Below, piece after piece: positions 2 to 64,000 of a stretch of DNA of 64,000 nt. The stretch comes from a virus. Position 1 is the first letter of the stretch. Each line of letters starts with the position of its first letter. Made by a program: the position numbers and the translations under genes. Below the pieces are notes generated by a model. It was not told the origin of the DNA. It searched no databases and saw only the letters and a program-made list of their open reading frames with translations. Where the stretch lies: the IMG/VR virus record IMGVR_UViG_3300009506_000003, positions 68,594-132,593 of that record. One strand, written 5' to 3'.

Positions 2-1165
2 TGCATCCCGCATGGCGTAATAGACCGCATTGAAGTCAAACCGTTCAGTACCTCCTCGAGCCGCTCGGACGGGTACGTCTCCGTCAGGCCCCAACCGGTC
101 GAGGGTGAGAAGAATCTTGTCCATCTCACCGATGGCGAGGTTGAGCGCCTTGAGCGCCTTGAGCAGCGCCTTCTTGGAGCCCTCTCCAACCGTGGTGTCG
201 ACCACGTTCACCGTCCCAGCCTTTTTGCGCTCGGGCTTCTGGGTGGTCCCGCCTGGGACGTACATGGCAGACGGGTTCGGGTAGATGTTGTGGAAGATGT
301 ACCTGTTGAGGTGGTTGAGGATGTCTCGGAAAGACACAAGCGTCCCAATGGAGGTCATGCCGTTCCGAATCCACTGGTTGAACGCCTTGCTGGCGTAGAG
401 CTTCGAAGAGGTCTTGTCCGCCTGGATCGCTCCAAGCTGCCCCAACAAGTTGTACCGGAGTTCAGCAATCGAGAAGAAGTCGTTGATGCCCTTGAAGCCC
501 TTGAAGTCTTTGCTCCGGTACTTGAGCCCTCCCACCGCCTCGAGCAGATGGATGAGCCCACCAAGCAACCCTTCCGTCTCTTGGTACTCGGGAGACCTTG
601 GGCGCGTGTTGATGAGTCGAGAGATGACCCACTGATGCCCACCAAAGTTGTCGAAGAGCCCCTGCCCTGCACCAACGAAGTTGTGGTGCTTGTCTGTGAG
701 CCCGCTTCCTCCAGCGGAGTAGTCGGCAAAGAACTGGTAGCAGGTGTCCCAGTACGACGACAGGTCCATGCACTGCAGAATCAGTTGCCGCCCGGTAGGG
801 GTCTTTCGGAAGTTGAACCCGATGACCTCCCCTGTGTAGAGCAACTTGTACGCGAAGTCGGACACCTCGTACCGGTTTAGGTCCTGCTCCTCAAAGACAG
901 GCATCTTCCGCACGGAGCCCAATCCGCTGTGCTGCTCCAAGGCCGTCTTGGCTTTGGCTACCTCGTCGTCTGTCAGTGCCTCATCCAAGTAGAACAGATG
1001 AACCAGGGTCCTCGGTAGCAAGTGCATACCCATGTCTGTAGGGATGATCTGAATCGCGGCTGTGGCAGGAGTATCTGGCTGCACCGTTACCGATGCAGAG
1101 ATGACGGGGACTTCAATGCCCTCCAGAAAGAGCCGAAGCCCGAGTGGCGCAACCTTGACGCTCAT
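2..1165 (-). CDS. Baseplate hub-like virion protein (partial, runs off window)
   Basis: Manually translated ORF absent from the track (MSVKVAPLGLRLFLEGIEVPVISASVTVQPDTPATAAIQIIP...). ATG overlaps the stop of the upstream gene (ATGA). Lies downstream of the tape-measure-like gene; function inferred from context. Confidence 0.55.
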   Translation of the reverse strand, partial: MSVKVAPLGLRLFLEGIEVPVISASVTVQPDTPATAAIQIIPTDMGMHLLPRTLVHLFYLDEALTDDEVAKAKTALEQHSGLGSVRKMPVFEEQDLNRYEVSDFAYKLLYTGEVIGFNFRKTPTGRQLILQCMDLSSYWDTCYQFFADYSAGGSGLTDKHHNFVGAGQGLFDNFGGHQWVISRLINTRPRSPEYQETEGLLGGLIHLLEAVGGLKYRSKDFKGFKGINDFFSIAELRYNLLGQLGAIQADKTSSKLYASKAFNQWIRNGMTSIGTLVSFRDILNHLNRYIFHNIYPNPSAMYVPGGTTQKPERKKAGTVNVVDTTVGEGSKKALLKALKALNLAIGEMDKILLTLDRLGPDGDVPVRAARGGTERFDFNAVYYAMRDA

Positions 1166-32633: not shown

Positions 32634-32995
32634 GGGCCCGACAGGTTTCGACGTGGACACGGAAGGAAGTGGGAGCGTGCCGCTGATGTATCGCAACAGC
32701 GTCAAAAAGCGATGCAACCTTCAACTGCCAACGACAACGTTGAGCAGGTCGCCCAGCGCCTCGCGGCGTAACAGCGACACCGAGAGCAGACGCCTGCTAT
32801 GCTCTCGGCGCCAAAAGCAGGATGCTGTCTTCATGAGGATGTCCGTCTTCGCATGAGGGCTCAAGACCAAACGGCTGGACAAGGGGTGTCGACCTGTCGG
32901 CGGGTACGGCGCACCGATAAAGAACACCGAATACGCACGTAGAGCTCACTCTGGAAGGTTTGCGGACCCCGGTTCGATTCCGGGCGGGTCCACCA
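32634..32995 (+). ncRNA. ssrA: tmRNA
   Basis: 5' GGGCCCGACAGGTTTCGAC; 3' T-arm GGTTCGATTCC and CGGGTCCACCA with G3-U70; tag frame 32727-32771 ANDNVEQVAQRLAA*. Confidence 0.95.
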
Positions 32996-56601: not shown

Positions 56602-57180
56602 GGCGCTTGTACGGGAGCTTGGAAGAATACCCTCCTACGCAGGTGGGACTCTCCAAGCTCCTGCATCACAACCTCCGGCTACTACATAGAGTCGAAGTTG
56701 TCACCGAAGCTCCGGGACTGGTCCGCTTCGGCCTCGTCTTCAGCTTTTGGGTGTTCTTCTTCACCTTCAACATCTACCCGTGGTGGGCGCGCAGACGTGC
56801 ACAGACGTTGCTCACGCAATACGTTGCTGTCGGGACTGTCGTCACCACTGTGATTGTCGAATGAGGAGGCGCTAGAGGGTCAAGCGGCTACCTGGACTTT
56901 TGGGAGCCGCACCCTCACTCCCCAAGCCCTCATGAGCTGGCGCATGTGCGCCCTCAGCACAGGGTCATGGGTCGTTTTGAGCCTCTCTTTCAGTTTCCTC
57001 AGGTGCTCCTTCGGAGAATCACCTGAGGAGCCGATCTCGGTCGCGTTCCAGACCATGACTTCCTCCTACACATCTTCTATGTATTTTACCACAACGTCAC
57101 ATTTTTGGTTGTTGTTTCACAAAGTTGTGGTAGGAAGATGTCTCACATTCATTTCACCCTCAGATAGGGAGACCAGAGCA

Positions 57181-57378
57181 ATGACTCAGCAAGTGACCAT
57201 CAACGAAGCCCAGAAGGCGGCTCTCAAGACCATCGTGGATGGTGGCCGTCAGTCTGCTGACACCTTCAACAAGCGGACCATCTTCGCCCTCGAGAACCGC
57301 GGTCTCGTCAAGACGACCGAGAACAAGAAGGGCATCTTCGTGGCCCCGACCGCGAAGGGGAAGAAGGCCCTCAACTAG
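57181..57378 (+). CDS. Small winged-helix-like protein
   Basis: GGGAG RBS; RTIFALENRGLV...TAKG; AT-rich upstream region with inverted repeat. Confidence 0.7.
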   Translation: MTQQVTINEAQKAALKTIVDGGRQSADTFNKRTIFALENRGLVKTTENKKGIFVAPTAKGKKALN

Positions 57379-57407
57379 CCAACCGCCACGGCTTTGGTCA
57401 TGGCGTA

Positions 57408-57449
57408 GAGCCCGGCCGCCTTCATTGGTGACCGGGCTCTTTTTTTAGC
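57408..57449 (+). terminator. Intrinsic terminator between convergent units
   Basis: AGAGCCCGGCCGCC ... GGTGACCGGGCTCT then TTTTTTAGC. Confidence 0.8.
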
Positions 57450-57452
57450 GAG

Positions 57453-57543
57453 TGGTGGGTAGGGAAGGATTCGAACCTCCAGTGGCCACTGTCGTGACTC
57501 CGGGTCTACAGCCCGGCGCGTTCAGCCATTTCGCTACCTACCC
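57453..57543 (-). tRNA. tRNA-Tyr(GTA)
   Basis: Cloverleaf, long variable arm, CT-GTA-GA loop, CCA. Confidence 0.93.
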
Positions 57544-57546
57544 ACG

Positions 57547-57620
57547 TGGAAGAGGAGCTGGGAATCGAACCCAGATGAACTGGTCCAAAGCCAGTTGCCC
57601 TGCCATTGAGCGACTCCTCC
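57547..57620 (-). tRNA. tRNA-Gln(TTG)
   Basis: ACTGG-CT-TTG-GA-CCAGT; CCA. Confidence 0.92.
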
Positions 57621-57623
57621 GTT

Positions 57624-57699
57624 TGGATGGGGAGGCGGGGGTCGAACCCACAACCTCCTGATTCAGAATCAGGCGCTCCACCAGTTGAGCTACTCCCCA
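57624..57699 (-). tRNA. tRNA-Gln(CTG)
   Basis: CCTGA-TT-CTG-AA-TCAGG; CCA. Confidence 0.92.
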
Positions 57700-57700
57700 A

Positions 57701-57774
57701 TGGAAGCCGAGACCGGATTCGAACCGGTGATGCCTGGGTTGCAGCCAGGTGCCTTTCCACTTGGCTACTCGGCT
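57701..57774 (-). tRNA. tRNA-Cys(GCA)
   Basis: CCTGG-CT-GCA-AC-CCAGG; U73; CCA. Confidence 0.93.
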
Positions 57775-57775
57775 T

Positions 57776-57849
57776 TGGGGTGACCGCGGAGAATCGAACT
57801 CCGACCATCGGGGCCACAACCCGACGCTCTACCATTGAGCTACGGCCAC
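57776..57849 (-). tRNA. tRNA-His(GTG)
   Basis: TCGGG-TT-GTG-GC-CCCGA; C73; CCA. Confidence 0.93.
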
Positions 57850-57956
57850 AAGGGGACCTCGAGCTGCCTCGGGAGCCCCTTCTGGTCGCAGACGTCAATG
57901 TCGTAGAGCTTGCGCTCATCGCAGTATCTCCAAGTTGTGGACAGAGAGATCCGCGC

Positions 57957-58007
57957 TCAGGCTTGAGCCGGATATTGATGACAGTGCTGGTAGAAGCGAC
58001 TGACCAT
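57957..58007 (-). CDS. Leader peptide MVSRFYQHCHQYPAQA of the His/Cys/Gln/Tyr tRNA cassette
   Basis: ATG 6 nt after -10 TACACT; codons TAC CAG CAC TGT CAT CAA TAT. Confidence 0.75.
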   Translation of the reverse strand: MVSRFYQHCHQYPAQA

Positions 58008-58013
58008 GAGACG

Positions 58014-58043
58014 AGTGTACGACAGGCAGGCAGGACCTGACAA
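58014..58043 (-). promoter_or_regulatory. sigma70-type promoter of the His/Cys/Gln/Tyr cassette
   Basis: TTGTCA-N18-TACACT. Confidence 0.7.
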
Positions 58044-58412
58044 CTAGATTTTCTCTATCGTGTCACCCTTGTCGCTGCAGAGGTACACCGGGAGCTGTGT
58101 GCGCCCGACCTTCCTCTCACCGTTCTGGGTGAACCAAATCAACCTGAAGATGGGGCAGTCCTGCTCATCATCGTGGACAACCACACACGGCCGCGCGGGA
58201 CCATCGAAGAGCATGTGCCTCGTGAGCCGGCCATCATTGCTGATGTCGCTCTCATCGACCTCGAAGTGGTCTCCGTCCCCGTATTCCACCTCGCTCACTT
58301 CACCAAAGACAATCCAGTGAGCTCCTGCGGGGATGGTTCTGTCATATTGGGGGTCGGGGCGCTCCGGGTTTGGAACGCGCCTGTACGCCTGCTTCTGGAA
58401 CTTCAGAATCAT
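58044..58412 (-). CDS. Hypothetical protein inside the tRNA cluster
   Basis: 122-aa ORF; purine-rich RBS region. Confidence 0.6.
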   Translation of the reverse strand: MILKFQKQAYRRVPNPERPDPQYDRTIPAGAHWIVFGEVSEVEYGDGDHFEVDESDISNDGRLTRHMLFDGPARPCVVVHDDEQDCPIFRLIWFTQNGERKVGRTQLPVYLCSDKGDTIEKI

Positions 58413-58483
58413 TTCCTACCTACCTTCCTGTCTGTCCTGCCTGCCTGTCCTCGTCGTAGCACAGGTCACGGACAGAAGGAAAG

Positions 58484-58575
58484 TGGCGGAAGGTGGAGGA
58501 ATCGAACCCCTACGCTTTTGACGCACCATGCTGGTTTTCAAGACCAGTGGCTGGACCATCCCGCCGGCACCTTCC
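58484..58575 (-). tRNA. tRNA-Ser(TGA), probably 8/4 fold
   Basis: CTGGT-CT-TGA-AA-ACCAG; acceptor GGAAGGTG/CACCTTCC; G73; long variable arm. Confidence 0.88.
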
Positions 58576-58577
58576 GT

Positions 58578-58652
58578 TGGTCGGGGTGGGCGGCTTCGAA
58601 CCGCCGACCTCTTGTCCCCCAGACAAGCGCGCTACCCCTGCGCTACACCCCG
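58578..58652 (-). tRNA. tRNA-Pro(GGG)
   Basis: CTTGT-CT-GGG-GG-ACAAG; CCA. Confidence 0.92.
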
Positions 58653-58880
58653 GACCTTGTCAAAGAGGTAGCCCAAACTGCGGCTCCCCTGCTCTTCCTC
58701 TGACATCGAGAAGCCGTAGAACGTGTCGAGGCCCGTGTGCTCCACACCGTCGTCATCGACGATGGACACTCCATTGCCGAGACCGGCCTTCTCGAAAGCC
58801 TTCTGAGCTGACTCCTTGTCTTTGAAGCGCAGCTCATCCGTGCAACATCCACAATCCAACTTCACGTACACCGTGATCAT
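58632..58880 (-). CDS. Hypothetical protein whose stop codon lies inside tRNA-Pro(GGG)
   Basis: AGGAG RBS; phage-like codon use. Confidence 0.55.
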   Translation of the reverse strand: MITVYVKLDCGCCTDELRFKDKESAQKAFEKAGLGNGVSIVDDDGVEHTGLDTFYGFSMSEEEQGSRSLGYLFDKVRGVAQG

Positions 58881-58899
58881 GACGATCTCCTGTTTCGAG

Positions 58900-58975
58900 T
58901 GGTCGGGCTGGCCAGGCTCGAACTGGCGACCTCCTGTCCCCGAGGCAGGCGCGCTACCATCTGCGCTACAGCCCG
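58900..58975 (-). tRNA. tRNA-Pro(CGG)
   Basis: CT-CGG-GG loop; CCA. Confidence 0.9.
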
Positions 58976-58976
58976 A

Positions 58977-59051
58977 TGGTCGGGGTGGTCAGGATCGAAC
59001 TGACGACATCCGGCTCCCAAAACCGGCGCGCTCCCGCTGCGCTACACCCCG
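58977..59051 (-). tRNA. tRNA-Pro(TGG)
   Basis: CCGGT-TT-TGG-GA-GCCGG; CCA. Confidence 0.92.
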
Positions 59052-59067
59052 ACAGTGCGAGAAAAGT

Positions 59068-59157
59068 TGGCGGAGCAGACAGGATTCGAACCTGCGGACG
59101 CCTCACGACGCCTACGGGTTAGCAACCCGCTGCCTTCATCCGCTCGGCCACTGCTCC
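59068..59157 (-). tRNA. tRNA-Ser(GCT)
   Basis: GCGGG-TT-GCT-AA-CCCGT; long variable arm; G73; CCA. Confidence 0.93.
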
Positions 59158-59165
59158 GCTGTGAT

Positions 59166-59279
59166 TCAGCGACTCAGTGGCGAACTGGGTGACGGGGATG
59201 GTGATGGGGAGGACGAGCTCGGGCACAGCACTGCGAGGTTGCAGTTGAGTCGTGCGCGAGTTTCGTTGAGCATCAACAT
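59166..59279 (-). CDS. Leader peptide MLMLNETRARLNCNLAVLCPSSSSPSPSPSPSSPLSR of the Ser/Pro tRNA cassette
   Basis: GAGGAGG RBS; 15 consecutive Ser/Pro codons; stop 8 nt before tRNA-Ser. Confidence 0.75.
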   Translation of the reverse strand: MLMLNETRARLNCNLAVLCPSSSSPSPSPSPSSPLSR

Positions 59280-59299
59280 GATGACGTCCTCCTCAGTCG

Positions 59300-59328
59300 A
59301 ATGTACGATAGCTGTGAGTGTTCGTCAA
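59300..59328 (-). promoter_or_regulatory. sigma70-type promoter of the Ser/Pro cassette
   Basis: TTGACG-N17-TACATT. Confidence 0.75.
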
Positions 59329-59334
59329 CAACTC

Positions 59335-59547
59335 ATGGAGTGGTCAGTCACAAGAATCGAGGGAGTGGTGCGCCACCTCGTCCCGTCCCTCACCAATGTA
59401 GAGGTCAGCTTCCCCTCTCCGGGAGTGGTGCGCGTGCTGATCACAGCCGAGAACGCATGGGGCGTGCAGAGCAGGGTCCAGTCAGTACTCGACCAAGCCC
59501 TGCCCGCCTCCATTCAGCGTGTTGAGGTGTTGGTTGTCAGAGGCTAG
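59335..59547 (+). CDS. Hypothetical protein
   Basis: Short ORF filling the gap; weak RBS. Confidence 0.4.
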   Translation: MEWSVTRIEGVVRHLVPSLTNVEVSFPSPGVVRVLITAENAWGVQSRVQSVLDQALPASIQRVEVLVVRG

Positions 59548-60005
59548 TCGTCAGATGCTTCTGCCCACGCAATGGTGACCGCCCAGTGAGACAAAACTGG
59601 GTCGAACGCTTTGAACGCGGAAGGGTTGTCGATGCCCATCGTCATCTTGCCGTAGCTGAATCCGTTCTCTCCCCAGTCGGCAGTGTATTTCCCACCACGG
59701 GTGTTGAGCTCGACGCTCCCGCTTTCCGGACCACTGTTGGTCACGGTAGTGAGGCCCCACCCGCCTTCCTCGTCCTTCACCATGTCGATGTAGTAGTAGT
59801 CCCCTGGGACGAACTCCTTGCCACCAGCGTCGAAGGACGGTCCACGGAAGTTGAGGGTCATGTCCCCAGAGGGGGTGAACTTCCAGAACTGGGAGTTCTC
59901 TTTGTTGTGCTTGCTCTGCACAACGGGGCCTAGCTCGACGACAAGCGTCTTGTCCCACTTCTTGGTAACGGAAAGGCAACGGAATTTGGCACGTACCTGG
60001 CTCAT
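59544..60005 (-). CDS. Hypothetical phage protein (VRAKFRC...EN..FWKFTPSG)
   Basis: GGAGG RBS; internal duplication pattern. Confidence 0.7.
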   Translation of the reverse strand: MSQVRAKFRCLSVTKKWDKTLVVELGPVVQSKHNKENSQFWKFTPSGDMTLNFRGPSFDAGGKEFVPGDYYYIDMVKDEEGGWGLTTVTNSGPESGSVELNTRGGKYTADWGENGFSYGKMTMGIDNPSAFKAFDPVLSHWAVTIAWAEASDD

Positions 60006-60090
60006 CTCTTCCTCCAAACGGTTGAATGTGAGCCGCGCTGTTGACCTGGATCGCGACGTGCCAGTTACCTCCACCGTAGCATGGTCAAGG

Positions 60091-60690
60091 TCAGAAGTCA
60101 GCTTCTTCGAGCAGCGTGTAGGTGAAGCCATCCCCAAACAAGGATGAGGACTTCTTGGCCAGCGAGTACAAAAACTGGTGCTGGAAGGGGTCAGCCACCA
60201 CTTGGCAGCCAGCACTCCACTTGTCCACAACCGTACTGGCCTGGCTAGACCCAGCGTGGTGGAGGTTGATGCCGAACATCCCTTCCTGGATGGAATCCGG
60301 GTCGAGGTCGAGGACCTCGTCCTTGTTGTTGTCCCGGTAGACTTTCAGAGGGCTCTTCTGCACCAGAGCTGGATACCCGCTGTGGAGCCCGAGCTTGAAA
60401 GCGCCCCGGTACTGTCCTGGGACCAGGATGGCGGTACCGTTCACGTTCATCGGGTGCTCCCGGTAGTAGACACCGGGGTCCGTGGTGGCGGGGAACATGA
60501 AGCAGTTCCATCTGTCATTGAAAAGGTACATCACGCCGATCACATCGTTGAAGGTGTTGGCGCGGTTGTCCAGGGTCCGAATGCCGAAGATGTTGAGGTC
60601 GTAGCCACCCTTCGACTGGTCACCGAAGACGAGGTAGTTCTTCGAGCGCATGACGGCTTTGATGAGCTTCGCATCGCTGAGTACAAGCAT
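60091..60690 (-). CDS. Putative peptidoglycan hydrolase/endolysin (YkuD-like H...WSAGCQV)
   Basis: LNIFGIR...FND...TTDPG...GINLH...WSAGCQV...FTYTL; AGGAGG RBS. Confidence 0.6.
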   Translation of the reverse strand: MLVLSDAKLIKAVMRSKNYLVFGDQSKGGYDLNIFGIRTLDNRANTFNDVIGVMYLFNDRWNCFMFPATTDPGVYYREHPMNVNGTAILVPGQYRGAFKLGLHSGYPALVQKSPLKVYRDNNKDEVLDLDPDSIQEGMFGINLHHAGSSQASTVVDKWSAGCQVVADPFQHQFLYSLAKKSSSLFGDGFTYTLLEEADF

Positions 60691-60722
60691 GTAGGCCTCC
60701 TATCCAGAAGAGCCTACCACGA

Positions 60723-60806
60723 TGGTGCGGCGGGAGGGAGTCGAACCCTCACCCTTTCGGCCCGGATTTTAAGTCCGGTGTGTCTACCTGATTCCACCAC
60801 CGCCGC
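60723..60806 (-). tRNA. tRNA-Leu(TAA)
   Basis: CCGGA-CT-TAA-AA-TCCGG; variable arm; A73; CCA. Confidence 0.93.
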
Positions 60807-60807
60807 G

Positions 60808-60892
60808 TGGTGCGCGGGGCGGGATTCGAACCCGCATGCCGAAGCACCGAGGTTTGAGCTCGGCGTGTCTACCTTGCTTCCACCACCCGCGC
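60808..60892 (-). tRNA. tRNA-Leu(CAA)
   Basis: CCGAG-CT-CAA-AC-CTCGG; CCA. Confidence 0.93.
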
Positions 60893-60966
60893 TCGAGCTG
60901 TGCGCCCTGGAACCCTGTCACAGCTCAATGGCGCCCTCCTATGTGCCTGACGCCACCCACTTCGAT

Positions 60967-61052
60967 TGGTGCCCGAGGAGAGATTCGAACTCTCACGCCG
61001 AAGCACGGGTTTCTGAGACCCGCGTGTCTACCAAAGATTCCACCACTCGGGC
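60967..61052 (-). tRNA. tRNA-Leu(CAG)
   Basis: CGGGT-CT-CAG-AA-ACCCG; CCA. Confidence 0.93.
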
Positions 61053-61053
61053 T

Positions 61054-61139
61054 TGGTCCGCGAGGGGAGACTCGAACTCCCACGCACAAGGCGCCGGTCC
61101 CTCAGACCGGTGCGTCTACCTGGATTCCGCCACTCGCGG
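61054..61139 (-). tRNA. tRNA-Leu(GAG)
   Basis: CCGGT-CT-GAG-GG-ACCGG; CCA. Confidence 0.93.
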
Positions 61140-61159
61140 ACGGGTTTGCTTGGGAGCTG

Positions 61160-61237
61160 CTAGCGCAACAGGGATAGCAGCCCGGTGCTAAGGTGCGGGC
61201 CGCGTAACAGGGACAGGACTCTGTGGTCGCGCTGCAT
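61160..61237 (-). CDS. Leader peptide MQRDHRVLSLLRGPHLSTGLLSLLR of the Leu tRNA cassette
   Basis: ATG 6 nt after -10 TAAGGT; 8 Leu codons (CTG x4, TTA, CTT, CTA, TTG). Confidence 0.72.
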   Translation of the reverse strand: MQRDHRVLSLLRGPHLSTGLLSLLR

Positions 61238-61243
61238 GGTCAC

Positions 61244-61273
61244 ACCTTACGCGCTCCGAAGCCTCTTCGTCAA
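61244..61273 (-). promoter_or_regulatory. sigma70-type promoter of the Leu cassette
   Basis: TTGACG-N18-TAAGGT. Confidence 0.7.
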
Positions 61274-61351
61274 GTCCTCAAAAAACCATAGCCGTTTGCG
61301 TAATAAGGTCCCTGAAGCTAACTCTGTTCACTTTTCACTGGAGGATCTCAA

Positions 61352-62419
61352 ATGCAGGTAGCAGCATCCGCCGCAGGCCCTGAAAAGACGGGTCACGGCA
61401 AACGTCCTCGCATCTCTGTCAAAGAGAAGCGGAAGCAAATGGCCATCGAGCTCTTCGCCAAAGCGGTGGAAGAGGCCGAGAAGCCGGCTCAGTCAGACTT
61501 CATCGTCCCCAAAGTCGACTTTGCAATGATTGGCCCCAAAGAAGCCAAGGAGCTTCTCCAAAAGAGCCAGGGCAACAGAAAGATCCGTGAGCTTCACGTT
61601 CGCTGGCTGGAAAAAGTCATGCGTGACGGGAAATGGGTGTTCGGACCTCCCATCATCATCGATCTCAACGGAGTCCTCATTGGTGGGCACCACAGGCTCC
61701 ACGCCGTCATAAGGTCAGGGCTCTACGTTCCCATGACCGTCATGAAGGGGGCTGACCCGCAGCTCAACGAGTGGACCAACCAACACAAGGAAGCCAAACT
61801 GGGTGACGAGATTCATCGCTACGGGATGAACAACGCCAACGCGCGTGGGGCCATAGTGAGGTTGGCCGCCGAACTCACCGCCAAGAGGAGAATCCCCGTC
61901 AACTCCTTTAGCGACTATGCTGAGTGGGCTCGGGTCTTCAAGGGAGTCGACTGGGTGGTAGAGAATCTGGTGGGCAAAGACCCCTGGAGGAAATCATCCA
62001 TCACGGGAGCTTTCGCTTACGCCTACAACACTGACCCAGATGCCGTGAAGCTCTTCTGCACGAAGATGGTCACTGGGGAAGGCCTTTCAAAAACAGACCC
62101 GGTGCTGGCGTTCCGAAATTGGTTTCTTTGGTACACTGCTACCGACAAGGACAAGAAGGATGTCCGCAAGCACGCCATTGCAGGCGGTGGGGATGAGCGG
62201 AAGCGAGTCTACACGTTCAAGGTGCTGCACTGTATCCGTGCGGCTATCGAGAAGAAGAAGCCAAGAACCTTGAAGTCCTTGAGGATGGAAGTTTCTCTCG
62301 ACGATCTTGAGTACTTCAGGCAAGCCAACGAGACCAGGGCGGCCAAAAAGATGGTCAACTACTGGTCCGAGCCGAGGATGTCTTCCGAGGAATTTCTCTC
62401 GTACCTCAAAGAGGGGTAG
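61352..62419 (+). CDS. ParB-like N-terminal domain protein
   Basis: I.P..AKELL...NRKI...M..GKW...III...G.LIGGHHRLHAV; GGAGG RBS; ATAAG promoter at 61303. Confidence 0.7.
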   Translation: MQVAASAAGPEKTGHGKRPRISVKEKRKQMAIELFAKAVEEAEKPAQSDFIVPKVDFAMIGPKEAKELLQKSQGNRKIRELHVRWLEKVMRDGKWVFGPPIIIDLNGVLIGGHHRLHAVIRSGLYVPMTVMKGADPQLNEWTNQHKEAKLGDEIHRYGMNNANARGAIVRLAAELTAKRRIPVNSFSDYAEWARVFKGVDWVVENLVGKDPWRKSSITGAFAYAYNTDPDAVKLFCTKMVTGEGLSKTDPVLAFRNWFLWYTATDKDKKDVRKHAIAGGGDERKRVYTFKVLHCIRAAIEKKKPRTLKSLRMEVSLDDLEYFRQANETRAAKKMVNYWSEPRMSSEEFLSYLKEG

Positions 62420-62431
62420 AGGAGGTGCCCC

Positions 62432-63565
62432 ATGATAATGAGATTGAACCGAAATAAGAGCCTTCCGGACCACATCAGCGGGAGTGAACTCTTCACCATG
62501 ATCGAGCCCTACAAGGTCAAGGGGCCCGGAAGCAAGAGGTTCGGGCGCAAGAAGTTCACAAGGGACATCCTCAACGAGTACACCGATGAGGTCAACTTCA
62601 CCCCAAAAGCAATCGTCTACGACAAAGGAGACGGAGGAACCAAAGAGACAAGAGGACTCAACGAGAAAGAGGTCAGAAAGATTCTGCATTTTCTGCATAG
62701 GGATGGCTACATTGGCTCAGCAACCATCACTCTCCATAAGAGGTTCGGCCTTTCCAAGGATGAGAACACTGAGGTGGTTGGAGTCATAGGTCGAAGCTCT
62801 AGCAGCGCACCTCTTGAGGAAGCAGTGTCTCCTTCTACTCACTCATCTCCGCCTGCAGGGAAAAGAGAGACGTGGGGCGAAGCCAACTCTCTCCTCGTTC
62901 GAGCGGTAAAGAAGAACGTACCCCTTTCGAACCTGATCAGCTCACTCATCTCTGCAGGTCTCAGACAAGAGCCGTTACCGGCGGAAACTGTTCTGAGGCA
63001 AATGGAGCGCCTACGTGATTCTGGAGAGATCAACAAAGAGAGCCTCATCCAGTACAAGCGCAACAACGGAATAGCCGCCAGAGGAGGATACAAAAGGCAA
63101 AGAGCAGAGCCAGAGAGGGTGACCGAAGCCAAGTCTTCTTTGAAATCCCCATGGGGGAAGCATCAAAGCACCCTGCTGTCCAAGCTCATCAATGAGGTAG
63201 ACCCTCTACCTGGTGAGACAGGAGCTACCTATTTTGAAAGAGTGGCCGGGCAATTCAACGAGTCAGGATTGCGTGTGGTCACGGGCCCATCGTGCAGGAA
63301 GCAAGCTCCAAAACTCATTGGCAAGGGAATCACGAGTGAGCGATACTCTCTTGTCAATCGAAGTAGAGAGGAGAAGCTCCCCGCTGGGAGCCCCACTCCT
63401 ATCGAGAACGAGATCCAACGAAGAAAGGAAGAATCGTTGGGCATCAATCTCGAATCGGCTCTCACGGAAGAGGCAAAAGAAAAAGCCATTGAGATGTACC
63501 TCACTCCAGAAAGAAGGAGGGAGGCATACCGAGGCTATTTCAAGTCTTTGGGAGTCAACATATGA
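62432..63565 (+). CDS. Hypothetical protein
   Basis: AGGAGG RBS; 377 aa; lower GC than its surroundings. Confidence 0.6.
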   Translation: MIMRLNRNKSLPDHISGSELFTMIEPYKVKGPGSKRFGRKKFTRDILNEYTDEVNFTPKAIVYDKGDGGTKETRGLNEKEVRKILHFLHRDGYIGSATITLHKRFGLSKDENTEVVGVIGRSSSSAPLEEAVSPSTHSSPPAGKRETWGEANSLLVRAVKKNVPLSNLISSLISAGLRQEPLPAETVLRQMERLRDSGEINKESLIQYKRNNGIAARGGYKRQRAEPERVTEAKSSLKSPWGKHQSTLLSKLINEVDPLPGETGATYFERVAGQFNESGLRVVTGPSCRKQAPKLIGKGITSERYSLVNRSREEKLPAGSPTPIENEIQRRKEESLGINLESALTEEAKEKAIEMYLTPERRREAYRGYFKSLGVNI

Positions 63566-63571
63566 AAAGGA

Positions 63572-63603
63572 GAGGGGTGCCGTCTGAGCCCCTCTTTTTT
63601 AGC
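63572..63603 (+). terminator. Intrinsic terminator
   Basis: GAGGGG...CCCCTC then TTTTTTAGC. Confidence 0.65.
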
Positions 63604-63606
63604 GTG

Positions 63607-63682
63607 TGGCGGGAGTGGAGGGAGTCGAACCCTCAGCCATCGGGTTAACGGCCCGCTGCTCTACCATCTGAGCTTCACTCCC
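63607..63682 (-). tRNA. tRNA-Asn(GTT)
   Basis: CGGG-CC-GTT-AA-CCCG; G73; CCA. Confidence 0.9.
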
Positions 63683-63777
63683 GAGTGGGGTGGCGTCAGA
63701 GGTGCATTCCCCGTGACGCCGGCCTACCGTGACGAGACAAGATGCCTCTGCTCGCTCGTGAGGGCACATCCCCATAA

Positions 63778-63851
63778 TGGTGGACCAGGTTGGTGTCGAC
63801 CCAACGTCTCGAGCTCTTCAGACTCGTGCTAAACCCCTCAGCTACTGGTCC
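63778..63851 (-). tRNA. tRNA-Phe(GAA)
   Basis: CGAGT-CT-GAA-GA-GCTCG; atypical T-loop GTCGACA; CCA. Confidence 0.85.
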
Positions 63852-63858
63852 AAGTTTT

Positions 63859-63932
63859 TGGTGGAAGTGACAGGAATCGAACCTGCATCTCTCGGGTGCA
63901 AACCGAGGGCTCTCCCGTTGAGCTACACCCCC
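63859..63932 (-). tRNA. tRNA-Ala(TGC)
   Basis: CTCGG-TT-TGC-AC-CCGAG; G3-U70; CCA. Confidence 0.92.
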
Positions 63933-63940
63933 ACGCGATC

Positions 63941-64000
63941 TGGAGCCGGTGACAGGAGTCGAACCTGCAACCCTCTGCTTACAAGGCAGACGCTCTTCCG
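63941..64000 (-). tRNA. tRNA-Thr(TGT), 5' end outside window
   Basis: TCTGC-CT-TGT-AA-GCAGA; T-arm; CCA. Confidence 0.88.

Follow-up and report, generated by a model that had tools for sequence, protein, structure and literature searches.

In the attenuators that control amino-acid operons and pheST (trpL, hisL, leuL, pheL, thrL and ilv), a short leader ORF carries a run of cognate codons, and the speed of the ribosome on this run is the signal. Other leaders work through Rho, among them tnaC, which belongs to the tna operon of E. coli, and two Salmonella leaders with proline codons, mgtL and mgtP. T-box riboswitches sense tRNA status for genes of the same amino acid, although they do so without translation, binding the tRNA via a specifier codon. 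The purpose of tRNA genes in phages has been a matter of debate for decades, and to our knowledge the regulation of these genes is essentially undescribed. The roles that have been proposed for them include codon compensation and escape from tRNA-cleaving defences (PMC10264068, PMC11555353). Among the leaders described in the literature are pheL (PMC3082878) and the leaderless polycysteine short ORFs of mycobacteria, which are presented as cysteine-responsive attenuators (bioRxiv 10.1101/834739). Our search of the literature, which covered the articles themselves, found no published leader-peptide control of tRNA genes.

Here we analyzed a short ORF that directly precedes a cassette of serine and proline tRNA genes in a phage from marine sediment (IMG/VR record IMGVR_UViG_3300009506_000003, a contig of 132,593 bp). 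The window is the whole stretch of DNA that was analyzed, 64,000 nt long (positions 68,594 to 132,593 of the record), and all coordinates below are those of the window. Like the trpL/hisL class, this locus has a short ORF with start signals at the predicted 5' end of the transcript and a codon run cognate to what is supplied downstream, here Ser and Pro at 15 of 15 codons, and as in the thr and ilv leaders, more than one amino acid is represented. Unlike that class, it is phage-borne, the genes downstream are tRNAs instead of enzymes or synthetases, a terminator hairpin with a U-tract is absent from a spacer of just 8 nt, and the structure predicted to compete is the first tRNA itself. With the tnaC and mgt leaders it would share the principle that a ribosome held at or near the end of the leader ORF, and no intrinsic terminator, determines what becomes of the transcript, and in the mgt leaders proline codons are the sensed signal, as we propose here; those leaders, however, control protein-coding operons and have a long unstructured C-rich site, whereas the tract here is short and mostly paired. 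The polycysteine ORFs, as far as the preprint cited above describes them, are also short, amino-acid rich and placed at the start of the transcript, and two sister leaders in our phage share this leaderless geometry; the polycysteine ORFs differ in that they control genes of cysteine metabolism, not tRNAs, and in that the Ser/Pro leader is led by a Shine-Dalgarno sequence. Neither a T-box (at E <= 1) nor any other Rfam leader family matched between 57000 and 64000.

Results

The anatomy of the leader locus agrees with the original prediction, whose promoter, ribosome-binding site and 37-aa ORF were each found on the minus strand at the position given for them. A -35-like hexamer TTGACG (59323–59328) and a -10-like hexamer TACATT (59300–59305) are separated by 17 nt and jointly match the consensus at 9 of 12 positions. 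The Shine-Dalgarno sequence GAGGAGG, as read from the sequence (59288–59294), lies 8 nt 5' of the ATG, and the ORF comprises 37 codons and a stop (59166–59279; ATG at 59279, TGA at 59168–59166), its translation being MLMLNETRARLNCNLAVLCPSSSSPSPSPSPSSPLSR. Three promoter-like sites were counted between 57000 and 64000, against 1.7 ± 1.2 in shuffled sequences, and two of the three in these 7 kb belong to the Ser/Pro leader and to the His-type leader described below. Codons 20 to 34 (59178–59222, minus strand) are an uninterrupted run of 15 Ser/Pro codons, and codon 36 is an additional Ser. The codon string that had been quoted is exact, with five kinds of Ser codon (AGC, TCG, TCC, TCA and AGT) and three of Pro codon (CCG, CCA and CCC).

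Beyond the 8-nt spacer, the cassette runs on the minus strand in the order tRNA-Ser(GCU) (59068–59157), tRNA-Pro(UGG) (58977–59051), tRNA-Pro(CGG) (58900–58975), an 82-aa ORF (58632–58880) whose final codons and stop overlap the next gene, tRNA-Pro(GGG) (58578–58652), and finally tRNA-Ser(UGA) (58484–58575). The 82-aa ORF matched no Pfam or PHROG family. At the tRNA-Ser(UGA) locus the top Rfam match was tRNA-Sec, at 44.9 bits and under the cut-off of 47 for that family. Of the 16 Ser/Pro codons in the leader, the cassette's own tRNAs read 13 by standard wobble, the rules of which are established; the exceptions are three TCC codons, for which the cassette holds no matching tRNA. Because the distal half of the leader is spelled in the amino acids of the cassette tRNAs, and for the most part in their codons, the speed of a ribosome on it could report Ser/Pro decoding.

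The run is statistically unique. When the 132,593-bp contig was scanned in all six frames, it was the sole locus with at least 13 Ser/Pro in 15 residues, and it scores 15; lowering the threshold to at least 12 gave 2 loci and to at least 11 gave 9. It lies directly 5' of the Ser/Pro tRNAs and on their strand, and a 150-nt target on a single strand represents about 6 in 10,000 of all strand positions. The presence of a Ser/Pro run ahead of Ser/Pro tRNAs is not chance. The least probable account of the locus, to which we give very little credence, is that chance alone produced it or that it is simply a small gene whose Ser/Pro-tailed peptide has a function of its own and which came to lie beside the tRNAs by accident. 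Its start signals are good and phage genomes hold many small genes, but a position this improbable would have to be accidental, the match is repeated at a sister cassette, and no homologue of the peptide was found among the 28–91-residue proteins of a set of 5.8 billion proteins. As read from its sequence, the peptide is also without a hydrophobic signal segment, its N-terminus having E, R and R mid-way. Lipoprotein signals have Gly, Ala or Ser before the lipobox Cys, whereas here Leu directly precedes Cys19.

Codon variety had been put forward as evidence that the run is not a simple DNA repeat. This part stands, as Tandem Repeats Finder reported merely a 12-nt unit in 1.9 copies. The variety is, however, no signal in itself: under the phage's own codon usage, at least five kinds of Ser codon among 10 codons are expected with P = 0.67 and at least three kinds of Pro codon among 6 with P = 0.89. 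A designed "codon census" was rejected because this variety is ordinary. Variety in the sister leaders is weakly unusual: in one, Tyr, Gln and His are each written with both of their codons (joint P of about 0.03), and the Leu leader has five kinds of Leu codon among 8 codons (P = 0.13).

The match between leader and tRNAs recurs within the phage. The head of a His-type cassette (57957–58043, minus strand) consists of TTGTCA-N18-TACACT, 6 nt and an ORF of 16 codons starting with ATG at 58007, MVSRFYQHCHQYPAQA; it precedes tRNA His-Cys-Gln-Gln-Tyr (57849–57453), and its YQHCHQY, 107 nt 5' of these tRNAs, is the contig's sole window with 7 of 7 residues in {H,C,Q,Y}. The head of a Leu cassette (61160–61273, minus strand) consists of TTGACG-N18-TAAGGT, 6 nt and an ORF of 25 codons, 8 of them Leu, starting with ATG at 61237; it ends 20 nt 5' of four tRNA-Leu genes (61139–60723), the fourth of which came from the Rfam search. 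The Leu density of this ORF is by itself not rare, as the contig has 57 such loci. The leader/tRNA match is therefore found at 3 of the 3 cassette heads that are visible in the contig, two strongly and the Leu one weakly, a fourth tRNA cassette being truncated by the contig end. Both sister leaders have leaderless geometry, in contrast to the SD-led Ser/Pro leader.

These heads bear on whether the tract is read by ribosomes at all. It could instead be an untranslated RNA or DNA element, such as a C-rich spacer, a G-run motif of the template strand or a binding site for a protein or tRNA, and the plus strand does carry the G-runs GGG, GGGG, GGGG and GGG across 59189–59225. We nevertheless regard such an element as very unlikely: an ATG with a strong Shine-Dalgarno sequence at 8 nt opens the frame that contains the run, this frame stops just 5' of the tRNA, each of the three leaders has a well-placed start in its frame, the pattern in the sister cassette is one of amino acids and not of bases, and the tract matches no Rfam family. 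The ORF is probably translated, judging from its start signals and frame.

The same design was found in cultured phages of Caulobacter and Brevundimonas. In CcrKarma (JX100811), the leader RQFVRQIQVVRNIR has 13 of 14 residues in {F,V,I,Q,R}, the sole such window of 36,686 in 24 kb, and precedes an annotated terminator and tRNA Phe-Val-Ile-Ile-Val-Gln-Gln..Arg. A second Karma ORF, gp083 (45 aa), contains 32 successive residues from {P,T,K,L,A,S}, as counted in its translation, and precedes tRNA Pro-Pro-Thr-Lys-Lys-Leu-Leu-Leu-Ala-Ser-Ser. The frame and the 31–32-codon length of the first Karma leader are kept in all seven of seven phages, from Karma to Colossus and Brevundimonas phage Gurke, in each of which the leader sits ahead of a Phe/Val/Ile/Gln-type tRNA cluster. 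Changes in its first half largely stay among the amino acids of the cluster, judging by eye from the translations, with tallies of 13/16 in Karma, 12/15 in Rogue, 10/16 in Gurke and 8/16 in Colossus. Terminators between leader and tRNAs are annotated in GenBank for Karma and Colossus and listed for Swift and phiCbK. Our leader resembles the Karma type in being a same-strand sORF right 5' of a tRNA cluster, spelled in the cluster's amino acids, in a genome that repeats the design at several clusters. It differs in having no terminator, whereas the Karma and Colossus records carry one, and in sharing neither sequence similarity nor amino-acid sets with it. A literature search found no paper on Karma-type codon-matched leaders. 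In the main text of the phiCbK genome paper the words "leader" and "attenuat" are absent, and its supplementary gene tables, a separate part, might comment on gp083 (PMC3556154). The Ser/Pro leader is one of three such heads in its phage, and the design is recurrent, including in cultured phages; the reading of the ORF as a leader peptide, which the original prediction had offered, gains support from this recurrence as well as from the in-frame, SD-led run behind a promoter-like site.

A relative of about 85% identity is represented by contigs that span 59140/59147–59293, which is the leader and the tRNA start, in runs from two studies, four DNA runs having been compared; no RNA run was listed as containing the sequence. 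Just 5' of the covered leader, 377 nt are replaced in it by 165 other letters. A plus-strand ORF of 70 aa at 59335–59544 was rejected as a real gene, having no Pfam family and lying in the stretch that is replaced. Megablast and blastn against named phages returned matches of tRNA size only. In IMG/VR, proteins encoded next to the cassettes served as anchors: the 199-aa protein was found at 26 loci, none with a tRNA cassette and with tRNA calls limited to one tRNA-Glu and one doubtful call; the 153-aa protein was found at 2 loci, the closest 58% identical and on a 139-kb record with 3 tRNA matches; and the 122-aa, 355-aa and 82-aa proteins, together with an alignment of three homologues of the 122-aa protein, yielded nothing. 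A scan of metagenomes for the 153-aa protein turned up 7 loci, the most promising one 64% identical, and a homologue of the 122-aa protein with 80% identity lies on a contig of 1158 nt; searches of genome contigs for relatives of the cassettes gave nothing useful. A degenerate back-translation of YQHCHQY had 26 matches in IMG/VR, with a tRNA in 0 of the 26 fetched stretches. Pro-Ser-Pro-Ser-Pro placed 20–50 nt 5' of a type-II tRNA D-arm motif had 10 matches in IMG/VR, 0 of them near a tRNA and all of them within larger open reading frames.

The original prediction had also noted that no U-tract terminator follows the leader, and this proved correct: no intrinsic terminator lies between leader and tRNA-Ser, nor any terminator-like site on the minus strand from 59068 to 59330. 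Elsewhere in the phage, canonical-looking terminators number 28, against 16.4 ± 4.0 in shuffled sequences. We also looked for a terminator hidden 3' of tRNA-Ser and rejected it, as the U-rich ACUUUUCU lies at least 7 nt past any alternative stem. Since the Ser/Pro leader has no terminator, the classical attenuation mechanism fails here.

Control through Rho had been suggested on the ground that the tract is C-rich and G-poor like a rut site. The composition is as described, with 27 C (47%) and 10 G (18%) in the 57 nt of 59222–59166, which ranks in the top 0.22% of contig windows, but it is forced by the UCN and CCN codons. If the leader senses Ser/Pro decoding and its output is Rho-dependent termination inside the tRNA cassette, as in the tna operon, a held ribosome would hide the loading site on the C-rich run, while a fast one would bare it and Rho would halt RNA polymerase. 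The missing intrinsic terminator, the stop codon that adjoins the tract and the precedents of tnaC and of the proline-codon leaders of the Salmonella mgt operons all fit such a scheme. In ribosome-free folds, however, the tract is mostly paired in two structures, H1 and H2, and only about 20 nt are left single; known loading sites are longer and less structured. The C content of the sister leaders, moreover, is only mildly raised, at 32% and 39%, and since these leaders are so much less C-rich, Rho cannot be the shared mechanism. We consider a Rho-dependent output decidedly unlikely.

Of the two structures, helix H1 pairs the region covering the Shine-Dalgarno sequence (5' arm, 59285–59295, minus strand, 11 nt) with 59205–59215, to which it is 91% complementary. 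This 3' arm contains the first Ser codons, TCG TCC TCC CCA, with an anti-SD-like CCUCC, and the helix also appears in computed folds. Hairpin H2 (59133–59195, minus strand) pairs the last ORF codons, the stop and the 8-nt spacer with about the first 25 nt of tRNA-Ser(GCU), capturing in the computed fold its 5' acceptor strand and D arm. Its energy is -33.6 kcal/mol (z = -4.91), which none of 200 shuffles equalled. The folding gain between leader and tRNA-Ser was -14.0, compared with -6.8 ± 3.4 for shuffled leaders, 3.7% of which were as low. In a ribosome-mask model, the probability of the tRNA-Ser acceptor stem was 0.00 without a ribosome or with the P site on codons 1–29, and 0.99 with the P site on codons 32–35; the ribosome freed the tRNA at 4 of 38 positions. 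The switch between H2 and the cloverleaf comes from the energy model alone, and such models underrate the actual folding of tRNAs. An "anti-tRNA hairpin" as a mechanism common to all cassettes was rejected because the Leu cassette is without one. In the His-type cassette, a hairpin on the 5' part of the tRNA persists at every modelled ribosome position, giving no switch.

These structures could also be served by translation in which nothing specific is sensed. Translation of the ORF would then do no more than protect, unfold or destabilise the tRNA precursor at its 5' end, for instance because any passing ribosome opens H2 or because the ORF is a loading pad, and Ser/Pro would be incidental to structure. 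H1 does need CCUCC, which can be read as Ser codons, the tRNA sequence does constrain the 5' arm of H2, and in the mask model the tRNA is freed at no more than those 4 of the 38 positions. Structure binds only codons 22–25 and 29–38, however, and not the entire 15-codon run, and such translation would leave unexplained both the YQHCHQY before His-Cys-Gln-Gln-Tyr and the matched leaders of the Caulobacter phages. This makes it, in our judgement, quite unlikely.

Discussion

We propose that the 37-codon ORF is the translated leader of a phage tRNA operon and that the speed of Ser/Pro decoding sets the output of the cassette, a proposal to which we give slightly better than an even chance. Stalling on the run may alter tRNA output, and the step from the one to the other is the weakest link of the explanation, as there is no terminator. 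The preferred candidate for this step, which we hold only tentatively and on the strength of the modelled folds, is a folding switch between H2 and the tRNA-Ser cloverleaf. In naked RNA, the last ORF codons and the stop would engage tRNA-Ser(GCU) by pairing with its 5' acceptor strand and D arm, and tRNA-Ser bound in H2 would be blocked both in forming its cloverleaf and in being cleaved by RNase P. A ribosome held at the final Ser/Pro codons would release tRNA-Ser. H1 would pair the Shine-Dalgarno sequence with the first Ser codons, and a stall of the ribosome at these codons would leave the start site accessible as well. Processing, the other output route raised by the original prediction, thus gains some support from H2 and from the modelled release by the ribosome.

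The folding switch could govern the first tRNA alone and not the Pro tRNAs. The sign of the response, in which slow decoding gives more tRNA, is assumed from logic, and coupling of transcription to translation could reverse the direction in which H2 switches. The broader picture appears to us rather unlikely in its full form: every tRNA block of a phage would have its own ribosome-read gauge, a mini-ORF in the codons that the block decodes, and in this lineage the gauge would act not via a terminator but through the end of the leader, which would hold the 5' half of the first tRNA until a ribosome stalls at the final cognate codons, so that maturation is what is regulated. Such a gauge would allow a phage to raise exactly the tRNAs that are absent in its host or have just been lost to a host anticodon nuclease.

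If the proposal is true, a leader spelled in the codons of the downstream tRNAs would be a feedback sensor of decoding capacity, and leader-peptide attenuation would extend from amino-acid supply to tRNA supply. It predicts that the output of a tRNA block rises when its own codons are read slowly, and solely then. The design is present in cultured Caulobacter phages, and the idea is therefore testable at the bench now, while the terminator-free version in the Ser/Pro cassette points to a second output mechanism.

tRNA genes of the window

The virus record measures 132,593 bp with 58% GC, the window being its right-hand 64 kb, and a wrap test for circularity of the record was negative. The window DNA occurs in sequencing runs of marine-sediment metagenomes and, as a small share, in one soil run. 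ARAGORN and Rfam placed every tRNA gene of the window on the minus strand, within 57453-64000. ARAGORN counted 16, and Rfam added a fourth tRNA-Leu (60970-61052, minus strand, 52.2 bits with the tRNA model, anticodon CAG as read from the loop) and a cut tRNA at the contig end (63944-64000, minus strand, model positions 16-71, anticodon loop TGT, Thr). Because the contig ends inside a tRNA gene, the Ala-Phe-Asn cassette must continue with more genes and have its head beyond the record. The phage also encodes a one-piece tmRNA (32634-32995, plus strand, tag ANDNVEQVAQRLAA). A lone tRNA-Pro(UGG) called by ARAGORN outside the window (G000:C1:51716-51794, minus strand) lies inside a 1006-aa ORF and may be either an erroneous call or tRNA-like sequence of that gene.

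A Ser/Pro-rich ORF precedes the Ser/Pro tRNAs

The elements described in the original prediction were found exactly as claimed on the minus strand: a promoter-like TTGACG (59328-59323) and TACATT (59305-59300) with a 17-nt spacer, also picked up by the promoter scan, GAGGAGG (59294-59288) followed after 8 nt by ATG at 59279, and an ORF of 37 codons closed by TGA at 59168-59166. The first tRNA of the cassette, tRNA-Ser(GCU), starts at 59157, 8 nt after this stop (ARAGORN, Rfam), and is followed by tRNA-Pro(UGG), tRNA-Pro(CGG), an 82-aa ORF, tRNA-Pro(GGG) and tRNA-Ser(UGA). The 82-aa ORF (58632-58880, minus strand) has its own AGGAG, overlaps tRNA-Pro(GGG) with its final seven codons and stop, and matched no Pfam or PHROG family. 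Codons 20-34 of the leader are uninterrupted Ser/Pro and codon 36 is Ser too; standard wobble rules let the cassette's own tRNAs read 13 of these 16 codons, the exceptions being three TCC. The plus strand opposite the run (59189-59225) carries the G-runs GGG, GGGG, GGGG and GGG with loops of 4, 8 and 11 nt, which might form a G-quadruplex on the template strand.

When six frames of the entire contig were scanned, the leader run, scoring 15, was the sole locus in which 13 or more of 15 codons were Ser/Pro; two loci reached at least 12 and nine at least 11. Of all strand positions, about 6 in 10,000 fall within 150 nt ahead of one tRNA head on a single strand. The varied codons do exclude a simple DNA repeat, as had been argued, and Tandem Repeats Finder detected just a 12-nt unit in 1.9 copies, which differ at two sites, both synonymous third-position changes. 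The variety itself, however, is expected from the phage's own usage (63 long ORFs) and carries no signal (P = 0.67 for at least 5 Ser codon kinds in 10, P = 0.89 for at least 3 Pro kinds in 6). A simple scan found 3 promoter-like sites in 57000-64000 (shuffles, 1.7 +/- 1.2), two of them being the promoters of the Ser/Pro leader and of the His-type leader described below.

A relative is ~85% identical to the window over 59140/59147-59293, and the 377 nt upstream are replaced there by 165 other letters. A 70-aa plus-strand ORF (59335-59544) fills the gap between the neighboring 153-aa gene and the leader promoter; it matched no Pfam family and its stretch is the one replaced in the relative, so it is probably not a gene. 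The metagenome contig L030, whose 153-aa protein is 64% identical to that of the window, carries a 13-codon ORF (363-413, plus strand; MTSSSTTFVFEER) ending GAG GAA CGG TAG, 8 nt before tRNA-Glu(CUC) and tRNA-Glu(UUC). This spacing equals that of the window, and the cognate codons are just two, too few to judge.

Sister cassettes and cultured phages

Codon-matched short ORFs precede the tRNAs at 3/3 visible cassette heads, with strong statistics for two. The His-type head (57957-58043, minus strand) consists of a promoter and a 16-codon ORF, MVSRFYQHCHQYPAQA, in which both codons of Tyr, Gln and His are present. It holds YQHCHQY, the sole 7/7 {H,C,Q,Y} window of the contig in six frames, 107 nt before the tRNAs His-Cys-Gln-Gln-Tyr. 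The Leu head (61160-61273, minus strand) combines a promoter-like site with an ORF of 25 codons, 8 of them Leu (CTG four times, TTA, CTT, CTA, TTG), that ends 20 nt before four tRNA-Leu; Leu density by itself is not rare (57 loci in the contig). A post-hoc pattern, promoter plus 5-7 nt plus ATG, has two occurrences in the entire contig, one at the His-type leader and one at the Leu leader. With this spacing both would be leaderless, in contrast to the Ser/Pro leader with its Shine-Dalgarno; leaderless initiation would be an assumed property of the host.

Similar arrangements were found in cultured phages. In CcrKarma (JX100811), a 32-codon ORF holds RQFVRQIQVVRNIR, of whose 14 residues 13 belong to {F,V,I,Q,R}, the sole such window of 36,686 in 24 kb. 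After this ORF come a rho-independent terminator annotated in GenBank and the tRNAs Phe-Val-Ile-Ile-Val-Gln-Gln-(Ile)..Arg. The annotated gp083 (45 aa) has 32 consecutive residues in {P,T,K,L,A,S}, as counted from the translation, and precedes a terminator and the tRNAs Pro-Pro-Thr-Lys-Lys-Leu-Leu-Leu-Ala-Ser-Ser. The DNA of the first of these leaders is alignable well beyond near relatives, and a 31-32-codon ORF of this Phe/Val/Ile/Gln type (L062 14067-14165; matching ORFs in L074-L079) retains its frame and position in 7/7 phages fetched (Karma, Rogue, BL10, Gurke, RB23, CcrSC and Colossus). Many changes among the seven replace the amino acid, and those in the first half, read by eye, stay largely within the cluster's amino acids. 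Such confinement is predicted by a codon gauge and not by a functional peptide. The second half (RAGRSRM...), directly before the annotated terminator, shows the strongest conservation. Counts of Asn codons are 1, 1, 1, 2, 1, 1 and 3 across the seven, and the clusters of Gurke and Colossus, with the highest counts, include tRNA-Asn.

Folding of the leader with the first tRNA

Classical leader-peptide attenuation requires a terminator. The original prediction that no U-tract terminator follows was borne out, the spacer being 8 nt and that strand showing no terminator-like site; elsewhere in the phage, 28 canonical-looking terminators were found against 16.4 +/- 4.0 in shuffles. In the predicted fold, the Shine-Dalgarno region (59295-59285) forms helix H1 with the first Ser codons, UCG UCC UCC CCA (59215-59205). 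Hairpin H2 joins the last leader codons, stop and spacer to roughly 25 nt at the start of tRNA-Ser(GCU), which comprise the 5' acceptor strand and D arm (-33.6 kcal/mol, z -4.91; 0/200 shuffles fold as well). With the real leader attached, the tRNA gains -14.0 kcal/mol, compared with -6.8 +/- 3.4 for shuffled leaders, 3.7% of 300 of which gain as much.

A ribosome footprint of 29 nt was next masked codon by codon, and the predicted probability of the tRNA acceptor stem was read out. Without a ribosome, or when the P site occupied any of codons 1-29, this probability was 0.00; codons 30-31 gave 0.06-0.13, codons 32-35 (AGU UCG CCA CUG) 0.99 and codon 36 0.37, and the value fell back to 0.00 at codons 37-38, at which the start of the tRNA lies under the footprint. 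In this model, a ribosome stalled on the last Ser/Pro codons would open H2 and free tRNA-Ser(GCU) to fold, and naked RNA would trap it. The model is an equilibrium energy model that underrates real tRNA folding, the switch would control only the first tRNA of the cassette, and coupled transcription and translation could reverse the sign of the response.

Such a switch is not shared by the sister cassettes. The His-type cassette is predicted to fold a hairpin over the stop codon (z -3.0) and another of 68 nt (57900-57833; -40.3 kcal/mol, z -3.23, 0/200 shuffles as good) that reaches 17 nt into tRNA-His and persists at every modelled ribosome position. The start codon of the Leu leader is predicted to pair with its last codons and stop, and folding gave no H2-like hairpin between the Leu leader and its tRNA.

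A possible gauge of Ser/Pro decoding

The leader-peptide reading is thus supported by the statistics, the two sister cassettes and the cultured phages, and we lean towards regarding the leader as a ribosome-read gauge of Ser/Pro decoding that sets cassette output. For the output step, the folding switch is our first candidate and Rho the second. A Rho-dependent step at the C-rich tract had been proposed from its composition, which is indeed C-rich and G-poor (27 C and 10 G in 57 nt, top 0.22% of windows), yet UCN and CCN codons force such a composition, so that it is not evidence for Rho. Rho action is weakened further because the tract is mostly paired without a ribosome and the sister leaders are not notably C-rich; Rho dependence also amounts to an assumption about the host. 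The alternative proposal of processing, or else folding, finds some support.

The words 'leader' and 'attenuat' do not occur in an eLife paper on phage tRNAs (PMC10264068) or in the searched passages of the phiCbK genome paper (PMC3556154), and searching full texts for tRNA genes controlled by leader peptides or by attenuation returned nothing relevant. Set against the literature, leader-peptide attenuation directed at tRNA genes, here without a terminator, would be a variant of known attenuation.
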